39,213 nt of DNA from a virus (IMGVR_UViG_2562617057_000005), one strand, 5' to 3'. Shown: positions 1-39,213, counted from the first letter of the stretch. The notes: generated from the sequence alone by a model not told the origin. Numbers and translations are program-made.

Positions 1-1440
<1,440 letters not shown>

Positions 1441-1565
1441 TCATACAAATAAGATGACGGCATTTTACTCGCACGTTCCATGAAAATCCTTTGCAAAGCG
1501 TAATGTTTCAAATGCACAAAACTTTTATACTCTAAGAAATCAGGATTGCACCAGTACAAGCAGCC

Positions 1566-1720
1566 TGATGTTTGACGAGTTGAAGGGACGTGAGATAAAT
1601 GAATGGTGATTCGTGAGATAATTTCGAACGGGAGTGGGTTAAAACGAATGCTACCGAATAATTTTATGAAATTGTTTTGCTGTATGTGAAACGGTAGCAG
1701 TTCACAAAAAACAGAGAATA
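1566..1720 (+). repeat. putative prophage end (att-like) with Mu-type transposase-binding-like motifs
   Basis: 5'-TG at about 1566-1570, then TTGAAGGGACGTGAGATAAA resembling the Mu L1 end site (TTGAAGTACGAAAAA). Nearby are CGTGAGATAA twice (about 1589 and 1612), TTTCGAACGG and TGAAACGG. Position is ±5 bp. Confidence 0.4.
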
Positions 1721-1920
1721 TGAGTGGTAAAATTTCTAATCCGTGTTCCGTGAATGGAGAAATATTGCCCATGCCCGATAAAAATAGCAACCCATCTGAC
1801 TTTTCCGAAGATATGAAAGGATGCGTTACCTTTGAGTCAGAACGTTATGGACCATCAGGCGATTCATCAGATAACTGTTCTTCTCAGTCTGATGACGATG
1901 CACCGCCACCACGGGACTAA
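1720..1920 (+). CDS. hypothetical small acidic protein (66 aa), doubtful
   Basis: ATG ORF with a weak ribosome-binding site; acidic Ser/Asp-rich C-terminus; converges on the 214-aa gene with a 3-4 nt overlap. May be non-coding end sequence. Confidence 0.2.
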   Translation: MSGKISNPCSVNGEILPMPDKNSNPSDFSEDMKGCVTFESERYGPSGDSSDNCSSQSDDDAPPPRD

Positions 1921-2561
1921 TCTTTCTGCCGTGCGCTAATAGCTTTATTTCTGGTTCGTCTGATCCTCACCATGGCAATCTGATCTGCAGGGATATAGGT
2001 TGCCATCGCTCCCCAGCTTTTACTTTCAACATCTTTTTCAATCCATTCATCGCGCCCCGGTTTTTTTTCATGAGTGACATACATCACTATGTCTTTTTCC
2101 ACTCCTAACACAAAAGAACCGCTGGCCTGGCCTTCAAATTTCCCCGGATTTTCAGAAAGCAGCACAGTACCATTCTTCAGATAGACATACGCCTCGCTGA
2201 TATAGTATCCATGTTGATCAAACATACGCATCCAGGCAGAGGGGGTATCATCAGACCATGATATATCCTTATTTCTGAGGAATCTGTACATCCATTTACG
2301 CCCATATTTTCTCCATAATGCAGCGTATGCAAAAGCGCAAAGAAGTGTTGGAGGTGTCGCCAGCCACGAATTCAGACCTGCCCACATAACAGCCTGGTAA
2401 ACCATCATTGACAGCAAACCAAAAATCAGCGTCGAAAACGTCACCTCAATGGGTTTGTGATGGTTCTTCAGCCCCACGTTCGCAATAAAATAGCCGATAT
2501 AACCACTGGTGAGCGTCACCAGCGTTGCCCATGGCAGATTCAGCAAGGATGCATCAAACAT
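1917..2561 (-). CDS. hypothetical membrane protein, three predicted N-terminal TM helices plus a ~120-aa soluble C-terminal domain; candidate prophage cargo (superinfection exclusion or abortive infection-like)
   Basis: 214-aa ORF with GGAGG about 5 nt upstream of the ATG. Hydrophobic stretches at roughly residues 11-31, 40-63 and 68-83. Separated from the upstream mor operon by a hairpin terminator, so probably its own transcription unit. Confidence 0.7.
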   Translation of the reverse strand: MFDASLLNLPWATLVTLTSGYIGYFIANVGLKNHHKPIEVTFSTLIFGLLSMMVYQAVMWAGLNSWLATPPTLLCAFAYAALWRKYGRKWMYRFLRNKDISWSDDTPSAWMRMFDQHGYYISEAYVYLKNGTVLLSENPGKFEGQASGSFVLGVEKDIVMYVTHEKKPGRDEWIEKDVESKSWGAMATYIPADQIAMVRIRRTRNKAISARQKD

Positions 2562-2588
2562 ATTTCCTCCGGTGATATGTTTTTCTGC

Positions 2589-2628
2589 CAGAATAAAAAA
2601 AGCGCAACAGGTTATCCATTGCGCTTTT
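2589..2628. terminator. putative bidirectional rho-independent terminator
   Basis: A7 run, stem AGCGCAA...TTGCGCT, then T run (T7 when read on the minus strand). Sits downstream of the leftward mor operon and upstream of the 214-aa gene. Confidence 0.5.
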
Positions 2629-2655
2629 CATAAACCGGGAATTTATTGACGTTCG

Positions 2656-2847
2656 TTAACACTTTGGTGGCGGTGGTGGTGGGTTACGTAAAACTTTCCC
2701 GTAATACAAAACACAATTTTCATCAGGCCCGATATGCAGGCGCGAGTTGTCAATCAGCCTGTCGCATTCCCGGAGAACATATCTCGCCTCAGCAGAAGTC
2801 AGACCGTCAAAAAAAATGCCGGATAATTTCCATCGCCATATCTGCAT
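2656..2847 (-). CDS. hypothetical 63-aa protein with C-terminal Pro6 run, doubtful
   Basis: ATG ORF with weak AAGG ribosome-binding site between mor and the terminator; low-complexity C-terminus. Confidence 0.25.
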   Translation of the reverse strand: MQIWRWKLSGIFFDGLTSAEARYVLRECDRLIDNSRLHIGPDENCVLYYGKVLRNPPPPPPKC

Positions 2848-2911
2848 GGTCTGCCTTCTTCAGGGGGGGCGCTGTTGGGGGTTTTATAGCGCATTATCAC
2901 CTCGCTTTTGA

Positions 2912-3298
2912 TTAATCCCGGCTGTCATCCGGTTCATCATCGTCTTCGAATAACTGCCCCTGCAACCGGCTGATTTCTTCCTTTCTTACGCGCTTCACCA
3001 GGTTGTAAATCCAGGGAACTGAAACCCTGAATCTGCGGGACAGTTCGTGGTGGTTACGTCCGTTAAACGCCTCATAGATTTCACGGTCACGCTGGCTTAT
3101 CTTCCATCTCATCCCCATAGGAAAATAAACGTTTTGCCCGCCCCAGACCTGCATCATGCGGTTCGCGACGGCCTGACCAATCTGGTCGGCAACTTCGGGC
3201 TCAATATCAATAATCTCGCGAACGGTCTCAGAGGTATGCTGTGCCAGCTCCACCAGGAGTTCCGGCCCTTTACTTCGAAACTGATTCAGGTCGCTCAT
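2912..3298 (-). CDS. mor: Mor/C-family transcriptional activator (middle operon regulator-like)
   Basis: 128 aa; the segment GGQNVYFP...EIYEAFNGRNHHELSRRFRVS...YNLVKRVRK parallels Mu Mor (GGGQVYIP...FNGRN...). GGGAG ribosome-binding site upstream. Confidence 0.8.
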   Translation of the reverse strand: MSDLNQFRSKGPELLVELAQHTSETVREIIDIEPEVADQIGQAVANRMMQVWGGQNVYFPMGMRWKISQRDREIYEAFNGRNHHELSRRFRVSVPWIYNLVKRVRKEEISRLQGQLFEDDDEPDDSRD

Positions 3299-3722
3299 GT
3301 TTTACTCCCGCAGCTCTGTGCTGCCACTTCTTCAGTTTCTCAATAACACTGCTTGCCTGTTCAGTATTGAGCCAGCGCAGGGCGCTGATGCCCGTTTCCC
3401 GCTTGATCCACCGCGCTAATGCATTTTCTGAACGGTCACGAACAATGCCGGCAGCAGCCATTTCAAGCCATAGCGCACGGATTTTCCTGGACTGCGGATG
3501 GTTATCCAGCGGTAAACCGGAGCTGGCTTTTCCGGCAGGCTTAACGCGAAAGCCTTTCCTTTTCATGGATTCCAGCACGCAGTTTAGTTGTGTGGTATCC
3601 ATTCCTTTGGTTGAGGCTTTACCGGTCAGCCCCTGTAACATCTGGCGGTAGGTGTCTTCATCCATACCCAGTTCATTACGGGCAATATGAATGAGCTGGA
3701 TAAGACGTTGTTTAGTCATCAT
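3270..3722 (-). CDS. gemA: GemA-like regulatory protein (DUF1018 family)
   Basis: N-terminal KQRLIQLIHIARNELGMDEDTYRQMLQGLTGK pattern typical of Mu GemA-like proteins. Start placed at the first ATG of an ATG-ATG pair with AAGGAG upstream; the track ORF extends to 3761. Confidence 0.7.
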   Translation of the reverse strand: MMTKQRLIQLIHIARNELGMDEDTYRQMLQGLTGKASTKGMDTTQLNCVLESMKRKGFRVKPAGKASSGLPLDNHPQSRKIRALWLEMAAAGIVRDRSENALARWIKRETGISALRWLNTEQASSVIEKLKKWQHRAAGVKHERPESVSK

Positions 3723-3927
3723 CGTTGCTCCTTTTACCTGCGCCACCGATATAATCGACATATAAAGGAAGCGCCACAGGCCAGCACAGGAACATCACCG
3801 ACCAGCTAATCCAGTAGCTGGCACCACTGTAACGTGAATAAAACCCTGAACGGCGGTGCAGTTCAGCAGTACACCAACCGACAAAACAATACCAGAACAG
3901 GGCACATACAACAGATTCAGCAGTCAT
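3712..3927 (-). CDS. hypothetical small membrane protein (about 71 aa)
   Basis: Internal ATG of the 3712..4083 track ORF, with a G-rich ribosome-binding site. Hydrophobic segments (VVCALFWYCFVGW, WSVMFLCWPVALPLYV). Overlaps neighbours by about 11 nt. Confidence 0.4.
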   Translation of the reverse strand: MTAESVVCALFWYCFVGWCTAELHRRSGFYSRYSGASYWISWSVMFLCWPVALPLYVDYIGGAGKRSNDDD

Positions 3928-4147
3928 TCTGAATATCCCCCCAACTGATATGAATATTACGGGCAGCAATGACAGGGTCGTTATTCCACCATGCACCTGA
4001 CATGTATTTTTCAACCTGTTCGCGTCCGGCAATAATACCAATTGTGATCCCCGGCCTGACGTTCTTAAAAAAGGCGCGGGCAAAAAGGTATCTGGCAGAT
4101 ATTCGGCAGGCTTTTAATTTCCGGCTGTTACCTGATAGCGTAATCAT
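3917..4147 (-). CDS. hypothetical 76-aa protein
   Basis: Start overlaps the stop of the upstream DUF2786-like gene (ATGA-type coupling) with GGAGG upstream. Confidence 0.45.
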   Translation of the reverse strand: MITLSGNSRKLKACRISARYLFARAFFKNVRPGITIGIIAGREQVEKYMSGAWWNNDPVIAARNIHISWGDIQNDC

Positions 4148-4827
4148 CTGGCCTCCAGTTTCTGTTGTTCCTGCCCACTGACCGGGCGGTGCAGTCTGAC
4201 GTTCTGCCCTTCACGAAACCCCGCATAGCGCGAGGCGTCGCCATTGCGACTTCTTCCCGGTTTACGCGCCCTGGTGGTTTGCGTTTGCGGGTATTTATGT
4301 TCCAGCCACTGCTGCATCAGTTCACGTTCGTCATCGGTCAGGGCGAAGGACTGTATTTCACTGATAACGGCCAGCACCCAGCCTTCAGCAAACTGGTCAC
4401 CACGGCTGGTACGGGTGGCAGTTTTTATTCTTTTGTTCTGTGCGCTGATATATTGCTGACGCGCCTTTTTCAACTGGCGGGCCAGCACCTCCCAGGTGTA
4501 CGCAGCCAGTGCGGCCCGTTCCCGGTTGCCGTAGAACCCCACACCCGGATATGTGCCGGGGTGAATGATGGAGTTAACACCAAATGCCTCGCGGATGATG
4601 TTCATCAGGCCTGGCATGTAGCGCGGTGGACGGAGGCTGCCTGTCGGCCAGTAGTGACTGATGGTTTCATCAATATCACTCATGGCTATGTCGGAATGTG
4701 TGATGCCGTGAACATCCATCAGTTTACGGGCACGGCGCAGTGCAAGAGCGGCCTCGTGCGGGTTGCCGGATGCAGCCAGCGCCAGCAACTTTTTCAGTTT
4801 CTCAATGTGTTTATTCTGATCTGTCAT
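4144..4827 (-). CDS. DUF2786-like prophage early protein
   Basis: 227 aa; N-terminal IEKLKKLLALAASGNPHEAALALRRARKLM motif as seen in DUF2786 proteins of Mu-like prophages (family assignment from memory). Confidence 0.7.
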   Translation of the reverse strand: MTDQNKHIEKLKKLLALAASGNPHEAALALRRARKLMDVHGITHSDIAMSDIDETISHYWPTGSLRPPRYMPGLMNIIREAFGVNSIIHPGTYPGVGFYGNRERAALAAYTWEVLARQLKKARQQYISAQNKRIKTATRTSRGDQFAEGWVLAVISEIQSFALTDDERELMQQWLEHKYPQTQTTRARKPGRSRNGDASRYAGFREGQNVRLHRPVSGQEQQKLEAR

Positions 4828-4905
4828 TGTTCAGTATCTCCGGTATTTTTCTGCCGTTTCCATGCCCGGACAGCGTCGGACAGCTCTTTCAGGCTGTATG
4901 CTGCT

Positions 4906-5040
4906 TTAAGCTTTTCCCATAACCACTGTGTTGTTATGTGCATCAGCAGGGCAGCCAGGGCTGCCCCCCGTACTGAGGCATGTCGCCAGGCCAGTAAGAA
5001 TCAGTGTCCATGCGGTGATTTCCCTGAGTATGTCAGCCAT
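4906..5040 (-). CDS. hypothetical 44-aa protein with signal/lipobox-like N-terminus
   Basis: Not in the ORF track (under 60 aa). ATG with GGGAGG 6 nt upstream, directly after the stop of the MazG-like gene. Translation MADILREITAWTLILTGLATC... Coordinates by eye. Confidence 0.3.
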   Translation of the reverse strand: MADILREITAWTLILTGLATCLSTGGSPGCPADAHNNTVVMGKA

Positions 5041-5054
5041 TGAATGCCTCCCGG

Positions 5055-5351
5055 TTACTCGTTCGTGTAAATCACGCCCAGTCGTGCAGCCAGACGTTCC
5101 AGTTTTTTCTGTTTGTGGAAGTCAATCAGCCGGTCCATCCCCTGAAGGCGCAGTTGCTCTGTCATGATTTCCACGTCTGCCAGCTCTGCCGCGAGGTCAC
5201 TTTCGCTGCCCTGTCCGTTCAGATTGCGGGCAGCACTGGCCGCCAGTTCAGCGGCCTCTTCTGTCAGTTTCAGGGCCTGTGCGTCCGGCCCGAAACGCTG
5301 CAGGGCCAGACGGTAGAGGGCGGTGCGGGTGAGTTCGGTGTTTCGTGTCAT
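5055..5351 (-). CDS. MazG-like nucleotide pyrophosphohydrolase-fold protein (putative)
   Basis: 98 aa with an EEAAEL ... ELADVEIMTEQL arrangement resembling the MazG/HisE EExxE...ExxD signature. Confidence 0.5.
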   Translation of the reverse strand: MTRNTELTRTALYRLALQRFGPDAQALKLTEEAAELAASAARNLNGQGSESDLAAELADVEIMTEQLRLQGMDRLIDFHKQKKLERLAARLGVIYTNE

Positions 5352-5360
5352 GCCGCGCCC

Positions 5361-5633
5361 TCAGTGCTTCCGGCTGACGGTGATGTGCAGGCCGCCTTCT
5401 GCAGTGGTTTCCATCCGGTACGGCACCTCATGCTCTGCCGTGTGGGTGAGTGTGTTCACCAGTACCTGCAGGGCAGCCGCCTTTCCGTTGGTCGCCACAA
5501 TGGCCTGAGCGGCCATGCTGATTAGCGCCGTCAGGACGTGCTTCACATCGGTGAGGTCGCGGTATTCACACTCGTTGACATAGTGTTCAACAAGGGTTCG
5601 GGTGCGCTGTCGTGCTTCCTGTGGGGTAATCAT
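5361..5633 (-). CDS. hypothetical early protein (90 aa)
   Basis: ORF in the tightly packed leftward early operon; no recognisable motif. Confidence 0.5.
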   Translation of the reverse strand: MITPQEARQRTRTLVEHYVNECEYRDLTDVKHVLTALISMAAQAIVATNGKAAALQVLVNTLTHTAEHEVPYRMETTAEGGLHITVSRKH

Positions 5634-5824
5634 TGCGAGTCCTCCCTGTCAGGGCGGGAGAATTCCATGACGGGCACGTCCGCCGAAAAATGCTGGCTGC
5701 AGTACGGACAGACCAGGGTGACGCGCACTGCAGGTACGTGGTACTTACCGGACATCACGGCGATGGCGCTGTGAAAACGCAGGGCTGTTATATCCCTCTC
5801 GCACTGAATACATTTAAATATCAT
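5630..5824 (-). CDS. putative zinc-ribbon protein (64 aa)
   Basis: Two CxxC pairs (CIQC and CPYC); overlaps neighbour by 4 nt. Confidence 0.5.
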   Translation of the reverse strand: MIFKCIQCERDITALRFHSAIAVMSGKYHVPAVRVTLVCPYCSQHFSADVPVMEFSRPDREDSQ

Positions 5825-5921
5825 GATTTAATTCTCCTCTGTTTCCGGCGTGCAGAAGCCCACGGCGCTGACGCCGGAATAAAAAAGAAAATGTTTTTAT
5901 TAAATAATTAACGTGGTGTGT

Positions 5922-6452
5922 TTACTGCACATCCTGCTCAAAAGGAATTATTGAAAAATCCTCAATGTCACTTTTTATGGTAATACCGGGAATATTTTTC
6001 ACGGCGTCCTTTTCATTCAGGATAGCGTCTTTATTTATTTCCTCTTTTACACGAATAAAGCGCTCAAGCCCCAGACGTCTCAGTAGTTCAATAACATTAT
6101 CCGCTCCGCGAATGCTGACTGACGGCGGGCGGTTTCGCCACTGCACCTCGCCGGTGGTGAGGTTAGCAAACTTCACCTTCCCGTTGCCGGTCAGTTCATC
6201 ACGGTGTGCCTCACACCATGTCTGGATACCGGACTGCAGTTCGGCCATGCGTTTTTTCAGGCTCTCGGTGAGCGGGGCATAACGTGCGGTGATGTCGCCA
6301 ATGGCGTCATTCATTTCTGTTTCAGCCCTGACCAGTTCACGTTGTGCGTCACCGAGCAGTCTGATTCCCTCAATGACCTCTTCACGAGTCCCCGGCACCC
6401 AGAGTGCTGCTGCGGCCTTGATACGTTTTGCCCCTTTTGTACTTTTTGCCAT
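5922..6452 (-). CDS. gam: Gam-like host-nuclease inhibitor / DNA-end-binding protein
   Basis: 176 aa; matches Mu Gam along its length as I remember it (AKRIK...AAA, ETEMNDAI, WCEA(N/H)RDELT, PPSVSIRG, GLxRFIR, GITxKSxIEDFSIIPFEQ). Confidence 0.9.
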   Translation of the reverse strand: MAKSTKGAKRIKAAAALWVPGTREEVIEGIRLLGDAQRELVRAETEMNDAIGDITARYAPLTESLKKRMAELQSGIQTWCEAHRDELTGNGKVKFANLTTGEVQWRNRPPSVSIRGADNVIELLRRLGLERFIRVKEEINKDAILNEKDAVKNIPGITIKSDIEDFSIIPFEQDVQ

Positions 6453-6479
6453 ATTTTATGATTTCTCCGGTTGTGCTGA

Positions 6480-6749
6480 TTACCACAAAGATTCCGGCCA
6501 CACGACGCGACAGCCGTGCAGTTCGAAAACGCCCTGACGGAAATATCCCCTGTGGTCATGTCCGGTATACAGATAACAGGCCTTTCCCTGCTCAAGCATG
6601 CGCATGCAATGCGCACTCCGGGAAACGCGGATGACAGGTTTGTTACCCCTGATGGTGATGCTTTGTACATCCGTGTTCGTCGCCTTAAGTGCCATAATGG
6701 CCGACTGCACTTTGTTAATCTGCTGGCTGATAACTGTGATGGATTTCAT
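6480..6749 (-). CDS. hypothetical protein (89 aa), directly downstream of the B-like gene
   Basis: ORF at the position occupied by kil-type genes in Mu; Cys/His-rich C-terminal half. Confidence 0.5.
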   Translation of the reverse strand: MKSITVISQQINKVQSAIMALKATNTDVQSITIRGNKPVIRVSRSAHCMRMLEQGKACYLYTGHDHRGYFRQGVFELHGCRVVWPESLW

Positions 6750-6751
6750 TA

Positions 6752-7918
6752 TTAAACCCCTTTGACAACGTCAGCGTTGACCTGTGGAACCCCGATTTCA
6801 GCAGCCAGATTCATGGCGGCTATTACCAGGTTACTGACGGCCAGCGGATACAGCAGGCTGACCCTGTTTTTACGGTGACTTCCCGGATTGCTCAGGCGGG
6901 CACGTATGGCATCCACTGCGCCGGCGTCCATAATGTCCGTCAGTTGTTTACCGGCCCGTTGCAGTTTGAACGTCAGAAACTCTTCAAGGTGATTGTCCAG
7001 AGGCAGAAGTTCGACCACCTCACAGCGCTGAACGACTTCACGGACTTCCATATTGCGTTCAGACAGTTTTGTCGCCAGTTCCGGCTGGCCAATCAGCACG
7101 ATGGACAGCAGTTTTTTGAAACCGGATTCCAGCTCAAAAAAGCGTTTGAGGTGTTTCAGTGTCGGAACGGGCAGACTGTGGGCCTCCTCAATCACCAGAA
7201 CGTGGCTGAACCCCGCCTGGCTGCTGTCTTTCAGGACGCGATGCAGCTGGCGAAAGCGGGCGTCCTGACTGCGTCTGATGCTTTCCAGTGGTGCGATGGT
7301 ACTGATAATGGCTTCGGCAATTGCTGCTGCCTTCAGGGTTTTCCCTTTCACATCGTTGTCTTCCATAGCGATGATGTATGGCTCGATAACAATCACCGGC
7401 GCATTCTCGCGGTTGATACGTTCAGTCAGGTCACGGCGCAGCGTGGATTTACCCGCACCGGACTCACCGATGACAGCCATAAACCCACCATGACGGGCTG
7501 TCTGGTACAGCGCCTCACGCACGTAGCGAATGTCCGGGGTGGTGAACACATCATCAGAACCCTGCATGGCTTCATCGGCGAACGGGTCACGGAAAAGACC
7601 AAACGCTTTTTTGGTTGCCGGGAATAACACCTGTTTTTTGAGTAACATGTTCTCTTCCTCACTGAGGTTCGTTTTATCTGTGGTACCCGCTGTACGGGGC
7701 GTGGCCGCGCCCTGTACAGCATCAAAACTCTTCGTTGTATCAATCCCCTGAGTTTCCAGCCAGGACGCAAGACGCCGGCGTACTTCTCCGGGACTGGTGC
7801 GGGGCCACGCGTTATGATTCACAATCTGGGCCAGCGTGGCCTCAGAAACATCGACGGCTCTCGCCACCACCGCCTGTGGAATACGGGCCTCTTTCAGTTG
7901 CTGCTTCAGTACCAGCAT
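6752..7918 (-). CDS. MuB-like transposition ATPase (AAA+), N-terminal HTH
   Basis: Walker A GESGAGKS and Walker B-like VLVIEEAH. The track ORF starts at a TTG at 7945; I place the start at the ATG at 7918, which has GAGGAGGG upstream and lies 10 nt after the transposase stop. Confidence 0.9.
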   Translation of the reverse strand: MLVLKQQLKEARIPQAVVARAVDVSEATLAQIVNHNAWPRTSPGEVRRRLASWLETQGIDTTKSFDAVQGAATPRTAGTTDKTNLSEEENMLLKKQVLFPATKKAFGLFRDPFADEAMQGSDDVFTTPDIRYVREALYQTARHGGFMAVIGESGAGKSTLRRDLTERINRENAPVIVIEPYIIAMEDNDVKGKTLKAAAIAEAIISTIAPLESIRRSQDARFRQLHRVLKDSSQAGFSHVLVIEEAHSLPVPTLKHLKRFFELESGFKKLLSIVLIGQPELATKLSERNMEVREVVQRCEVVELLPLDNHLEEFLTFKLQRAGKQLTDIMDAGAVDAIRARLSNPGSHRKNRVSLLYPLAVSNLVIAAMNLAAEIGVPQVNADVVKGV

Positions 7919-7928
7919 GTTTCCCTCC

Positions 7929-9698
7929 TCAGTTGCCGTTAACAATGCTGATAACGCTGCTGCGGGCCGGCGTGGTCAGCGTGGCCATGACTTCATCCAG
8001 TGCGGCTTCCGGTACGCCGTCCGGGTACTGTGCCGTTAACTGGCGGTAATGTTCCGGCGTCCAGGTAAGGCCGTCGGCGCTGAACTTATCGCGCAGGGCT
8101 TTCGCGGCCTCCACATGAGTCATGGGACGTTGTTCAGTGCGCGGCCCGCGTACGTCAGAGGCCTGACCGCGCTTCGGTATACAGGCCGGAAGCGTGGTGT
8201 CATCGATATGTTTATACGGGTCAAGCCGCCCGCCGAACGGCAGCGCCTTCGCCTTGCGTGCAGCAGCTGCATCTGCGGCGTTGTCTGTACCGGTGACCAG
8301 CGCTTCGGTTTCTTTTGCCGCCGCCTGCGCCGGTGTTTCCGGCAGGGTTTTGTAACTTTCGCCAAATACCGCCGCGCTTTCAGCAAAGCCAAACTCGTTC
8401 TTTCTGACCTCTTCGACCAGGAAGAACGTCTCGTGGCCGTCCTCACCGGTCAGAACCACCTGTGCCACATCGCTGCGCCACGGGTTACGGGTAATCATCA
8501 GTTTTTCACCGACCAGTACGCCCGGTACCGTTGATACGTCAAATTCAGTGCCCCGGAACGAGACACGAAGTTTTGGCGTGACTTTGCGGAGTTCTGGTGC
8601 CGCCACAGCCAGTTCACGGCATACCTCAACGGAAGGCGCTTTTTTCAACTGGTCAGCAGTAATCTTCAGCCAGATATCCGTGCGGGTTTTACCGTGGCGG
8701 CTGTGAACAGCCGTGGCGTTAAAGTGGCTGCGCCATTTTGCGGCCAGCGCGTTGAGTTCTTCCAGACTGTGAACCGGCCGGAACTTCAGACCCGGCTCCA
8801 GCCTGCGTTCGATAATGTCACGCGCCTTTTCCACCTGTCCGGTGGCGCGGGCGTTATGCGGCTTGTGCGCTATCAGGTCGATGCCCAGTGAGCGGCACAT
8901 GTTTTTCGTCATACCCGCGGTGTTTGCCGAGCCGGGGTCGAGATAGAGTATTTTCGGCACGCCGTGCAGCACGTCTGCGCCGCCACGCTCCTGCATGGCG
9001 TTGATAAGCACAGAACACAGGTTCTCACCGGATTCCGCACCCGTCACATACTCAACGTAAATCCAGCCGCTGGCATGGTCGGTAATCTCGTAACTCCACA
9101 CGCGGTCACTGGCGATACGGGCAAGATTAGCGGGTTTGTTCTTGTAGAACTTCGCGCTGTCCATCACCTGCAGCCCTTTGTGTCCATTGCTCAGGTAGTA
9201 AAGCGTGCAGAGAGAGGCATCAATCTGCCAGACATGATTGGGATGCAGGCTGGCCACTTCGGTATGCGGCGCAGGGGCATCCAGTTGTTCCGGGTGCAGG
9301 CCATAGTTACGCAGGGCACGACTGATGGCATCTTCGGACAACGGGAAAAACTCACCGGTGGTTTCATCTGTTCTGCCTGCGGAGATAAAGCCGTTAGCCC
9401 GCAGGGTTTCCACTGCATCCGCGATGGAATAGAGACGCTTACCGTTCTTGCGGGTGGCCTCACGCAGTGTGGCAGATATCAGCGCGGCTTCGTCGCGGGT
9501 CAGGGTGCTGCGTCCGGCATCGGCGCGTTTTTTGCGTTTATCAGTCACAGAGACCTCCTTCAGCCTGCGCAGCAGAGTGGCGCGGGACATGCCAAGTTCA
9601 GCACAGGCAGCGTCGTATACTGCACCGCGCTTACCATGCCCCGCGTCACGTGCCGCGCGGGCTGTTTCAACCAGTTTTTCAGTCAGTGCCGGGGTCAT
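7929..9698 (-). CDS. Mu-type DDE transposase (MuA-like)
   Basis: 589 aa; N-terminal HTH region and an integrase/rve-like core (WQIDAS ... YLDPGSANTAG), immediately upstream of the B-like ATPase as in Mu. Confidence 0.9.
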   Translation of the reverse strand: MTPALTEKLVETARAARDAGHGKRGAVYDAACAELGMSRATLLRRLKEVSVTDKRKKRADAGRSTLTRDEAALISATLREATRKNGKRLYSIADAVETLRANGFISAGRTDETTGEFFPLSEDAISRALRNYGLHPEQLDAPAPHTEVASLHPNHVWQIDASLCTLYYLSNGHKGLQVMDSAKFYKNKPANLARIASDRVWSYEITDHASGWIYVEYVTGAESGENLCSVLINAMQERGGADVLHGVPKILYLDPGSANTAGMTKNMCRSLGIDLIAHKPHNARATGQVEKARDIIERRLEPGLKFRPVHSLEELNALAAKWRSHFNATAVHSRHGKTRTDIWLKITADQLKKAPSVEVCRELAVAAPELRKVTPKLRVSFRGTEFDVSTVPGVLVGEKLMITRNPWRSDVAQVVLTGEDGHETFFLVEEVRKNEFGFAESAAVFGESYKTLPETPAQAAAKETEALVTGTDNAADAAAARKAKALPFGGRLDPYKHIDDTTLPACIPKRGQASDVRGPRTEQRPMTHVEAAKALRDKFSADGLTWTPEHYRQLTAQYPDGVPEAALDEVMATLTTPARSSVISIVNGN

Positions 9699-9713
9699 AG
9701 TTCGTTTTCCCTG

Positions 9714-10031
9714 TTATCCGATTCTGGCGGCAATTTTTCTGGCGAGGTCGCACAGTGTTTCGCCATCGCAGGTTTTCACCACGGTATTTACCGGTTGCGG
9801 TGCAACTACCGGGCGTAATGCTGACTGATTCTGCAGACGTCTTATCTGCTGCATCAGCATCACCTCCATCGTCAGTACAAACGGGTGCGTCTCCTGTGCG
9901 GGTACGCAGATTTCACCGGAAGGAGTCACCACGCGGAAACCCTGCACCATTTCCGGTACCAGATTACACAGTGCGTGCCCCAGCGCCTCCGGGCTGTCCA
10001 TCAGGATATTTTGTGTGTTATTCGTATTCAT
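9714..10031 (-). CDS. hypothetical early protein (105 aa)
   Basis: ATG overlaps the stop of the upstream gene (TAATG); GGAGG upstream. Confidence 0.55.
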   Translation of the reverse strand: MNTNNTQNILMDSPEALGHALCNLVPEMVQGFRVVTPSGEICVPAQETHPFVLTMEVMLMQQIRRLQNQSALRPVVAPQPVNTVVKTCDGETLCDLARKIAARIG

Positions 10032-38631: not shown

Positions 38632-39213
38632 ATGTTTTTTATGCAAATTGGCTATATTCGTGTGTCAACAAATGACCAGAACACGGATTTACAACGCAAT
38701 GCACTGAACTGCGCAGGATGTGAACTGATTTTTGAAGATAAAATCAGCGGAACGAAATCAGCCAGACCGGGATTGAAAAAACTGCTCAGAACGCTATCAG
38801 AAGGAGATACGCTGGTTGTCTGGAAGCTGGACAGACTGGGCAGAAGTATGAAACACCTGATCACGCTTATTGAGGAATTGCGGGAAAAAGGTGTTAATTT
38901 CCGTAGTCTGACGGACAGCATTGACACATCAACACCCATGGGGCGTTTCTTTTTTCACGTCATGGGGGCTTTAGCCGAAATGGAACGTGAATTAATTGTA
39001 GAGCGTACACTGGCCGGACTGGCAGCAGCACGTGCACAGGGGCGTATTGGTGGACGTCGTCCGAAACTGACAAAAGAGCAACATGAACAAATAGCAAGGC
39101 TGATCAAAAATGGCTATAGCAGGAAACAGTTGGCAATTATTTACGATATCGGTATATCGACGATTTATCGTTATCACCCTGTAGAGGAACTTCAAACTCA
39201 AGCTGAGTTGTAA
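38632..39213 (+). CDS. gin: serine recombinase DNA invertase, Gin/Pin/Cin/Hin family
   Basis: 193 aa, complete (stop at 39211-39213). MQIGYIRVSTNDQNTDLQRNAL...VVWKLDRLGRSMKHLI...GRFFFHVMGALAEMERELI..GRIGGRRPKLT matches Mu Gin closely as I remember it; catalytic Ser in YIRVST. Confidence 0.95.
   Translation: MFFMQIGYIRVSTNDQNTDLQRNALNCAGCELIFEDKISGTKSARPGLKKLLRTLSEGDTLVVWKLDRLGRSMKHLITLIEELREKGVNFRSLTDSIDTSTPMGRFFFHVMGALAEMERELIVERTLAGLAAARAQGRIGGRRPKLTKEQHEQIARLIKNGYSRKQLAIIYDIGISTIYRYHPVEELQTQAEL

Follow-up and report, generated by a model that had tools for sequence, protein, structure and literature searches.

A common but uncharacterized seven-gene block between gam and gemA of BcepMu-like Escherichia coli prophages

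What are the small genes that lie between gam and gemA in the early operon of a transposable phage, and what might they do? The question is raised by IMGVR_UViG_2562617057_000005, a 39,213-nucleotide stretch of viral DNA (referred to here, at its full length, as the window) that holds a Bcepmuvirus-type (BcepMu-like) transposable E. coli prophage upstream of clcA. A reading made from the sequence alone had matched the interval 3712-5824 to phage Mu's semi-essential early (SEE) region and had suggested that its products are host-modulating or anti-defense factors, among them a small lipoprotein-like peptide. Our analysis showed that the interval is an already-catalogued and very common prophage module whose genes are uncharacterized. 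It contains seven protein-coding genes, one of which is disrupted by a frameshift in the window. We think it probable that this block forms the accessory half of the early operon, far from the promoter, and is a positional analogue of the Mu SEE region with a core and a periphery to which different roles can be proposed.

The minus-strand gene order is A, B, p89, gam, the seven-gene block, gemA, and mor. The seven genes, a cluster of small same-strand open reading frames (ORFs), fill 3712-5824 head to tail from gam to gemA, and Pfam matches (Phage_Mu_Gam and GemA) confirmed the two flanks. The block and its flanks are as follows.

5922-6452, minus strand: gam, the upstream flank, encoding a Mu Gam-like DNA-end-binding host-nuclease inhibitor (PF07352, E = 4e-41; phrog_491)
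5825-5921, minus strand: the gam-Zn64 spacer, 97 nucleotides, which holds the Zn64 ribosome-binding site GAGGAG
5630-5824, minus strand: Zn64, a putative zinc-ribbon protein of 64 amino acids (phrog_3401, E = 2.3e-40; C5xxC8 ... C39xxC42)
5361-5633, minus strand: p90, 90 amino acids (phrog_3691, E = 8.8e-54), whose start overlaps the Zn64 stop (ATGA)
5055-5351, minus strand: MazG98, 98 amino acids, a candidate MazG-like all-alpha nucleoside triphosphate (NTP) pyrophosphohydrolase (phrog_2245, E = 4.8e-34)
4824-5040, minus strand: TM71a, a single-pass membrane protein of 71 amino acids when intact, here a pseudogene (phrog_3958)
4964-4969, a C-run on the plus strand: the frameshift site in TM71a, with 6 C here and 5 in all other copies
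4144-4827, minus strand: the DUF2786/DUF7168 protein, 227 amino acids, whose start overlaps the TM71a stop (ATGA)
3917-4147, minus strand: p76, 76 amino acids, basic (isoelectric point 10.0; phrog_3681, E = 7.2e-54), whose start overlaps the DUF2786 stop (ATGA)
3712-3927, minus strand: TM71b, 71 amino acids, aromatic-rich, a probable two-helix membrane protein (phrog_6436, E = 3.7e-15)
3270-3722, minus strand: gemA, the downstream flank (PF06252, E = 1.6e-40; RefSeq annotation of relatives)

Most of the ORFs that the sequence-only reading had singled out were present: the 98-amino-acid MazG-like ORF, with its acidic residues invariant; the 64-amino-acid ORF, with both cysteine pairs conserved; the DUF2786-like protein, which scored above the Pfam gathering thresholds; and two small ORFs, now p76 and the hydrophobic TM71b, the latter being the membrane protein of about 71 amino acids. 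That reading had omitted p90. The translational coupling that it proposed was borne out for ATGA overlaps, which occur at three junctions (Zn64/p90, TM71a/DUF2786, and DUF2786/p76), but no TAATG overlap was seen inside the interval. Longer overlaps join p76 to TM71b (11 nucleotides) and TM71b to gemA. A Shine-Dalgarno-like motif precedes each block start, and the likely start of gemA is ATGATG at 3722/3719, after an AAGGAG site. The spacer between gam and Zn64 is the sole sizeable noncoding gap of the block. No promoter-like or terminator-like site inside the block exceeded the shuffled expectation, and an Rfam scan of both strands of 1400-7000 returned no match at E ≤ 1.

Several lines of evidence show that the seven genes are real. 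All seven proteins match PHROG families, with E values from 3.7e-15 to 4.5e-76. Ratios of nonsynonymous to synonymous polymorphism (pN/pS), from Nei-Gojobori counts over alleles from 80 IMG/VR loci, were 0.07 for the DUF2786 protein, 0.09-0.10 for Zn64, and 0.18-0.20 for MazG98, values that reflect strong purifying selection; those of TM71b (0.30), p90 (0.41), and TM71a (0.43) were higher. Most block genes are thus under purifying selection. Profile and structure searches, which the sequence-only reading had proposed as a check, succeeded in part: a PHROG family was found for each of the seven proteins, but PDB sequence searches, made with the single sequences of MazG98 and the DUF2786 protein and then with two profiles, gave nothing significant. 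No block protein had a match in NCBIfam or in PADLOC, which covers defense and not anti-defense. Two further ORFs were discarded. A plus-strand ORF at 4165-5043 (292 amino acids, TTG start), which lies opposite the DUF2786 gene and the frameshifted gene, was judged to be a by-product of the G+C-rich coding strand of DUF2786 and is unannotated in relatives. A listed TTG-initiated ORF of 123 amino acids is spurious and extends TM71b upstream.

The block is present in 640 of 5,426 complete E. coli genomes (about 12%), at up to 97.9% nucleotide identity, and RefSeq annotates its genes in relatives as seven hypothetical or DUF2786 proteins. Among the 35 IMG/VR loci that we treat as close relatives (Gam at least 97% identical), seven gene architectures were found. 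Zn64, MazG98, and the DUF2786 protein are present in all 35. TM71a is absent from 8 of the 35, and in 3 others it is represented by an allele about 70% identical that is accompanied by an extra gene of 127 amino acids; TM71a thus appears to be naturally dispensable. The p76 frame is retained in 33 of the 35 and is replaced in the remaining two (L004 and L017) by a cassette encoding a 135-amino-acid zinc-finger/coiled-coil protein. TM71b occurs in two allele classes, about 41% identical to that of the window in 16 loci and at least 93% identical in 19, and p90 likewise has two allele classes, which recombine. The block thus comprises a stable core (Zn64, MazG98, and the DUF2786 protein) and a fluid periphery (p90, TM71a, p76, and TM71b) whose members are lost, swapped, or allelic. 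Natural loss was seen for TM71a and, in a few relatives, for p76, but never, among the 35, for a member of the core.

More distant relatives extend this pattern. Block genes are kept at 58-77% amino acid identity in three diverged loci (L040, L043, and L044). Loci whose Gam is 73-80% identical have MazG98 and/or the DUF2786 protein only, or neither (L050), together with unrelated cassettes. One such cassette, at 6992-7450 of L045, encodes a cysteine-rich protein of 152 amino acids that matches phrog_1518, "host nuclease inhibitor," at E = 3.3e-19; it is the only functionally labeled alternative cassette found in this slot. None of the seven block proteins was detected by tblastn in 32 loci (L051-L082) with Gam about 61-64% identical, which we take to be the Mu-proper-like loci.

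In the window, TM71a is split into an ORF of 44 amino acids (4906-5040) and another of 39 amino acids (4824-4943), which match positions 1-25 and 33-71 of phrog_3958, respectively. Alignment to two relatives revealed one extra G in a G-run of the coding strand, GTACGGGGGG in the window versus GTGCGGGGG in the relatives. This +1 frameshift both inactivates TM71a and creates the 44-amino-acid ORF, which the sequence-only reading had put forward as an unannotated ORF with a lipobox-like motif. The ORF is instead the front part of the frameshifted gene, and the intact gene, whose translation is MADILREITAWTLILTGLATCLSAGAALAALLMHITTQWLWEKLKAAYSLKELSDAVRAWKRQKNTGDTEQ, is annotated in RefSeq relatives (WP_000763554.1). 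Of 551 copies, from 528 complete E. coli genomes, none has the exact window sequence at the frameshift site: over 81 nucleotides, every copy shows exactly one gap and one mismatch relative to the window. The 6-G variant was likewise missing from all 27 copies that match the site in the loci compared. Either a private mutation or a sequencing error in the homopolymer accounts for the extra G. We rejected programmed frameshifting or slippage at the G-run because the 6-G variant is unique to the window copy and the run is short. The 19-residue Kyte-Doolittle mean of intact TM71a reaches 1.98, with residues 12-36 hydrophobic, and that of the truncated window product reaches at most 1.39.

MazG98 shows weaker matches to two further PHROG families, phrog_4856 (E = 5e-4) and phrog_1992, "MazG-like" (E = 4e-3). 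The protein carries an ExxE...ExxD metal-binding signature, in which E31, E32, E56, and D59 are invariant and E35 is nearly so (23 and 15 homologues). At E ≤ 0.1, 18 of 23 family members match the PRA-PH family (best E = 4e-4) and 5 of 23 match the MazG family (best E = 0.019). All of the homologues are from Enterobacterales, and the family is confined to enterobacterial BcepMu-like phages.

In Zn64, C5 is invariant and C8 nearly so, and the CP[HYC]C motif is kept in all homologues that have an intact C-terminal half. The two conserved CxxC knuckles are those expected of a zinc ribbon, and the assignment made from them is a prediction; Pfam zinc-finger matches were below threshold. Only 10 representative clusters in a set of 1.8 billion proteins belong to this tiny family. 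A related zinc-ribbon gene follows gam, either directly or one small gene later, in distant enterobacterial relatives (L041, L045, and L050) that share almost nothing else of the interval. The coupled gene, p90, has named homologues that are essentially all from E. coli and are 68-96% identical. Positive selection on p90 was rejected: pN/pS was about 0.4 in both halves of the protein, which indicates that constraint is relaxed yet that the ratio does not rise above 1. An E. coli protein of 70 amino acids (P0152) has the N-terminal 52 residues of Zn64 fused to the conserved C-terminal hairpin of p90 and is probably the product of a deletion that joined the two coupled genes.

The DUF2786/DUF7168 protein scores 43.0 bits against PF10979 (DUF2786; cutoff, 23.9) and 90.5 bits against PF23771 (DUF7168; cutoff, 25.5), and both domains are present in all homologues. 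It contains an invariant motif, D144xFxEGW150. An AlphaFold model built from a 35-sequence alignment (predicted local distance difference test [pLDDT] score, 86.8) combines a helical hairpin at the N terminus with a small alpha/beta domain of KH-like topology, long helices, and a tail that is basic. Structural matches of the model were the type I KH domain and the N-terminal dimerization hairpin of Sgt2/SGTA, at 12-25% sequence identity. The DUF7168 core could not be placed among KH domains, which are defined by a beta-alpha-alpha-beta-beta-alpha fold and a GXXG loop that joins the two helices: no GXXG loop was found in the modeled core, and a loop stands in place of one KH helix. The KH-like core is therefore a resemblance of fold only, as far as the model indicates. 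Foldseek searches of viral models recovered this fold in phages that infect many unrelated hosts, Tenacibaculum, Sinorhizobium, Delftia, Gordonia, Mycobacterium, and Bacillus among them; every one of these matches is uncharacterized. The hosts of these phages span Bacteroidota, Actinomycetota, Bacillota, and Pseudomonadota, and some of the phages are presumably virulent. Literature on DUF2786 and DUF7168 yielded incidental mentions or nothing.

The p76 gene of L018 is split by an insertion of about 1.3 kb (8305-9786 of that locus), and in strains CE10 (NC_017646) and N32 (NZ_CM165895) the corresponding early block contains an annotated gene for an IS3-family transposase. The block is thus a target for disruption in some lysogens.

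How closely does the block correspond to the SEE region of Mu? That region (kil, gam, sot, arm, and cim, together with gemA/mor) is defined in PMC4553209. Like it, the block belongs to the early operon downstream of A and B, accompanies gam, and ends in gemA-mor. It also consists of many small, tightly packed genes, for some of which natural variation suggests individual dispensability. Its gene content is nonhomologous to that of the Mu region, and only Gam and GemA match a Mu-specific Pfam family. Because no homologue of the block proteins was detected in the loci with Gam about 63% identical, the correspondence is one of position and not of homology. The equation with the Mu SEE region made in the sequence-only reading thus stands for location and fails for descent.

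Closer counterparts are found among the Bcepmuviruses. Escherichia phage PhiKM (PQ738613, Bcepmuvirus) has the same block in the same order at 96.6% nucleotide identity. The window differs from PhiKM and from E. coli Bcepmuvirus prophages in the +1 G frameshift, in a different mor allele and left end, and in two cargo genes encoding proteins of 63 and 214 amino acids. The GenBank annotation of PhiKM (L002) omits Zn64 and calls in its place an ORF on the opposite strand (3990-4211, plus strand), which is probably a misannotation. In BcepMu itself (NC_005882), the type member of the genus, the bottom-strand early operon likewise ends in gemA-mor at the left end. One of the products of the equivalent region, gp03-gp07, is gp06, a small "pyrophosphatase" that bears an ExxE...ELAD motif. 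The region consists of gp07, gp06, a DUF3164 protein, an HU-like protein, and an SSB-like protein, and it has no gam, Zn64, DUF2786 gene, or small membrane protein genes.

The reading that we consider probable, an accessory half of the early operon, can be put in terms of a mechanism as follows. The block would be transcribed only after release of the repressor, on one message with the transposase genes, and, to judge from the anatomy of the junctions, its small genes would be translated by coupling. During replicative transposition, the core would serve transactions that involve phage DNA and nucleotides. MazG98 may hydrolyze a nucleotide, either noncanonical (d)NTPs or the alarmone (p)ppGpp, and so keep the host permissive; the DUF2786/DUF7168 protein may be a dimeric nucleic-acid-binding protein; and Zn64 may work beside Gam as a small zinc-ribbon partner. 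The peripheral proteins would be dispensable factors for interaction with the host, with the envelope or host proteins as their targets. In Pseudomonas Mu-like phages, small proteins of the early operon, such as Aqs1 (phage DMS3) and Tip (phage D3112), act on host targets that include PilB and LasR. They offer a precedent only for host-directed functions in this position, and no homology to them is expected.

Several observations weigh against this account. We inferred the functions of all the block genes, and the division into core and periphery draws on about 35 IMG/VR loci, which do not constitute independent samples. MazG98 itself scores 15.1 bits against PRA-PH (PF01503), below the cutoff of 21.3, and is also below threshold against MazG (PF03819). 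Its only PDB evidence, a profile match to the nucleotide pyrophosphohydrolase 5ie9, aligned the motifs at a nonsignificant E of 0.47. Homology between MazG98 and BcepMu gp06 was not demonstrated, because hhalign aligned the ELAD motif only (E = 0.3). Support for MazG98 as a candidate MazG-like pyrophosphohydrolase is therefore good but not complete, the PHROG match and the invariant motif being set against subthreshold Pfam scores and a nonsignificant PDB match. The AlphaFold model of p90, three helices and a hairpin, is of low confidence (pLDDT, 66; predicted template modeling score, 0.35), and Foldseek comparison of p90 with the PDB gave no match below E = 1. The pN/pS of p76 was 0.67, from 35 changes, which are too few to show constraint. 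The hydropathy of TM71b, 1.51, is borderline to the threshold for a membrane protein.

The strongest competitor to the accessory-operon reading is that the block is an anti-defense island, in which one or more proteins directly neutralize a bacterial immune system. MazG98, for example, would destroy an immune nucleotide or alarmone, or Zn64 and p90 would mask a Gam/GemA-dependent trigger of nuclease-helicase systems such as Gabija. In the Mu-like Pseudomonas phage JBD30, gam and gemA each independently render the phage sensitive to Gabija (bioRxiv 10.1101/2025.08.30.673261). The block sits between the gam and gemA genes of the window prophage, and a countermeasure encoded between them would make sense. 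A phage MazG-like pyrophosphatase, Atd1, depletes (p)ppGpp and counters TIR-STING toxicity (bioRxiv 10.1101/2022.06.09.495361). Atd1 provides a precedent for such an enzyme and is likened to MazG98 by description, as a small phage MazG-like enzyme among accessory genes. The mosaic gene content among near-identical phages, the faster evolution of p90 relative to its neighbors and its near confinement to E. coli, and the phrog_1518 match of the L045 cassette in the same slot point in the same direction. Against these points, searches of Pfam, PHROGs, NCBIfam, PADLOC, and PDB sequences found no similarity to a characterized anti-defense protein; the three best-conserved genes are invariant in presence and strongly constrained, unlike typical arms-race genes; and pN/pS was below 1 for every gene with enough substitutions. 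The spread of the DUF2786 fold over phages of four phyla, whose hosts are unrelated, favors a general phage function over a host-specific counter-defense. We consider an anti-defense role for one or more of the proteins possible but less likely than the accessory-operon reading, and nothing in the analysis singled out a particular gene. By the same tentative estimate, at least one member of the block may be a new anti-defense or host-takeover factor, the best candidates being Zn64, relatives of which come after gam also in distant phages, with its coupled, faster-evolving p90, and also MazG98. Such a factor might shield the phage from Gabija-like sensing of DNA ends bound by Gam or GemA, or might destroy a nucleotide signal or alarmone.

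It is very improbable that the block is decaying cargo, nonfunctional baggage of a cryptic prophage whose ORFs persist because they are young. The frameshift in TM71a, the insertion in p76 of L018, and the IS3 genes in CE10 and N32 would fit decay. However, the frameshift is private to the window copy, the prophage has a defined left end at 1581, a full early operon, and intact transposase genes, most of the genes are under purifying selection, and the same genes are maintained in the diverged relatives L040, L043, and L044. In addition, a phage with the same block, PhiKM, has been deposited in GenBank.

The remaining suggestion, that the 44-amino-acid ORF is a genuine small lipoprotein gene and the extra G a functional variant or a programmed-frameshift site, deserves almost no credence: its strong GGGAGG ribosome-binding site 7 nucleotides upstream and its N terminus, with a basic residue, a hydrophobic stretch, and a cysteine, belong to the 71-amino-acid gene that is intact in every other copy. 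The lipobox consensus is [LVI][ASTVI][GAS]C, in which position -1 must be G, A, or S, and LATC has threonine there, contrary to the consensus. The ORF, a truncated 5' part of a frameshifted gene, is for that reason also not classed as a lipoprotein. In intact TM71a, the hydrophobic segment extends at least 13 residues beyond the cysteine (predicted transmembrane segment, 12-36), which places LATC inside a membrane anchor and not in a cleavable signal peptide. Restoring the reading frame would take a +1 shift, and efficient slippage needs a run longer than G6. The small lipoprotein candidate of relatives, with LLVSAC or LLVGTC, is an unrelated gene that is absent from the window. This lipoprotein candidate (phrog_16556) lies in the gam-gemA interval of distant relatives, at 6622-6804 of L041, 6654-6872 of L050, 7057-7335 of L051, and 7060-7353 of L053, and is the kind of gene that the sequence-only reading believed it had seen.

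The prophage that carries the block could be delimited on its left side. Bases 1-1,580 of the window are E. coli clcA-yadX, for which 5,425 complete E. coli genomes gave matches of up to 100% identity. The prophage starts at 1581 because the host match stops exactly at 1580, which puts the junction at 1580/1581. From 1581 the left end reads TGAAGGGACGTGAGATAAATGA; it resembles the end of related prophages, TGATTAGACTTGAGATAAATGA, and differs from that of PhiKM and MS21-1 (TGATTAGACTTGAG...). The left end also carries repeated GTGAGATAA(A/T)T motifs, which are probably transposase-binding sites. The prophage was found at this site in no complete E. coli genome searched, as expected for a transposable phage. 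The other features of the early operon and the left end are listed below.

7929-9698, minus strand: transposase A (from the ORF list)
6752-7945, minus strand: B-type ATPase (from the ORF list)
6480-6749, minus strand: p89, 89 amino acids, between the B ATPase and gam (phrog_2041, function unknown)
2912-3298, minus strand: mor, the middle-operon regulator, annotated as a Mor family protein in relatives and overlapping the end of gemA
2656-2847, minus strand: ORF of 63 amino acids, cargo between mor and the left end
2597-2629, minus strand: terminator-like hairpin with a 14-bp stem and a T-run, the first strong one on the minus strand, beyond mor and the 63-amino-acid ORF
1917-2561, minus strand: protein of 214 amino acids with hydrophobic N-terminal segments (phrog_12870, unknown function)

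The p89 protein is retained at 35-60% identity even in distant relatives and is positionally more conserved than most block genes; its slot is that of Mu kil/cim. Mor is 79-100% identical among related loci. MS21-1 and PhiKM lack the two cargo genes; L019 and L032 carry them in identical form, and the identity in other relatives is 68-82%. The 214-amino-acid protein had no above-threshold match in Pfam, NCBIfam, or PADLOC. By appearance the pair looks like an independently expressed moron, with a role, possibly, in lysogenic conversion or exclusion. Long plus-strand ORFs occupy the remainder of the window, and the transposase genes of the early operon are intact. The last codon of the window is the stop codon of a gene for a Gin/Hin-type serine invertase (38632-39213, plus strand), which suggests an invertible tail-fiber segment near the right end of the prophage, as in Mu.

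At present the value of these results lies mainly in annotation: the block has seven genes, one of them is a pseudogene in the window copy, and the supposed lipoprotein peptide does not exist. For the DUF2786/DUF7168 family there is now a confident model with a KH-like core, which may guide experiments. If the anti-defense interpretation should prove true, a prophage present in about 12% of complete E. coli genomes would give easy access to small inhibitors, and it would offer a natural system for learning how transposable phages tolerate defenses that are triggered by their own Gam and GemA.

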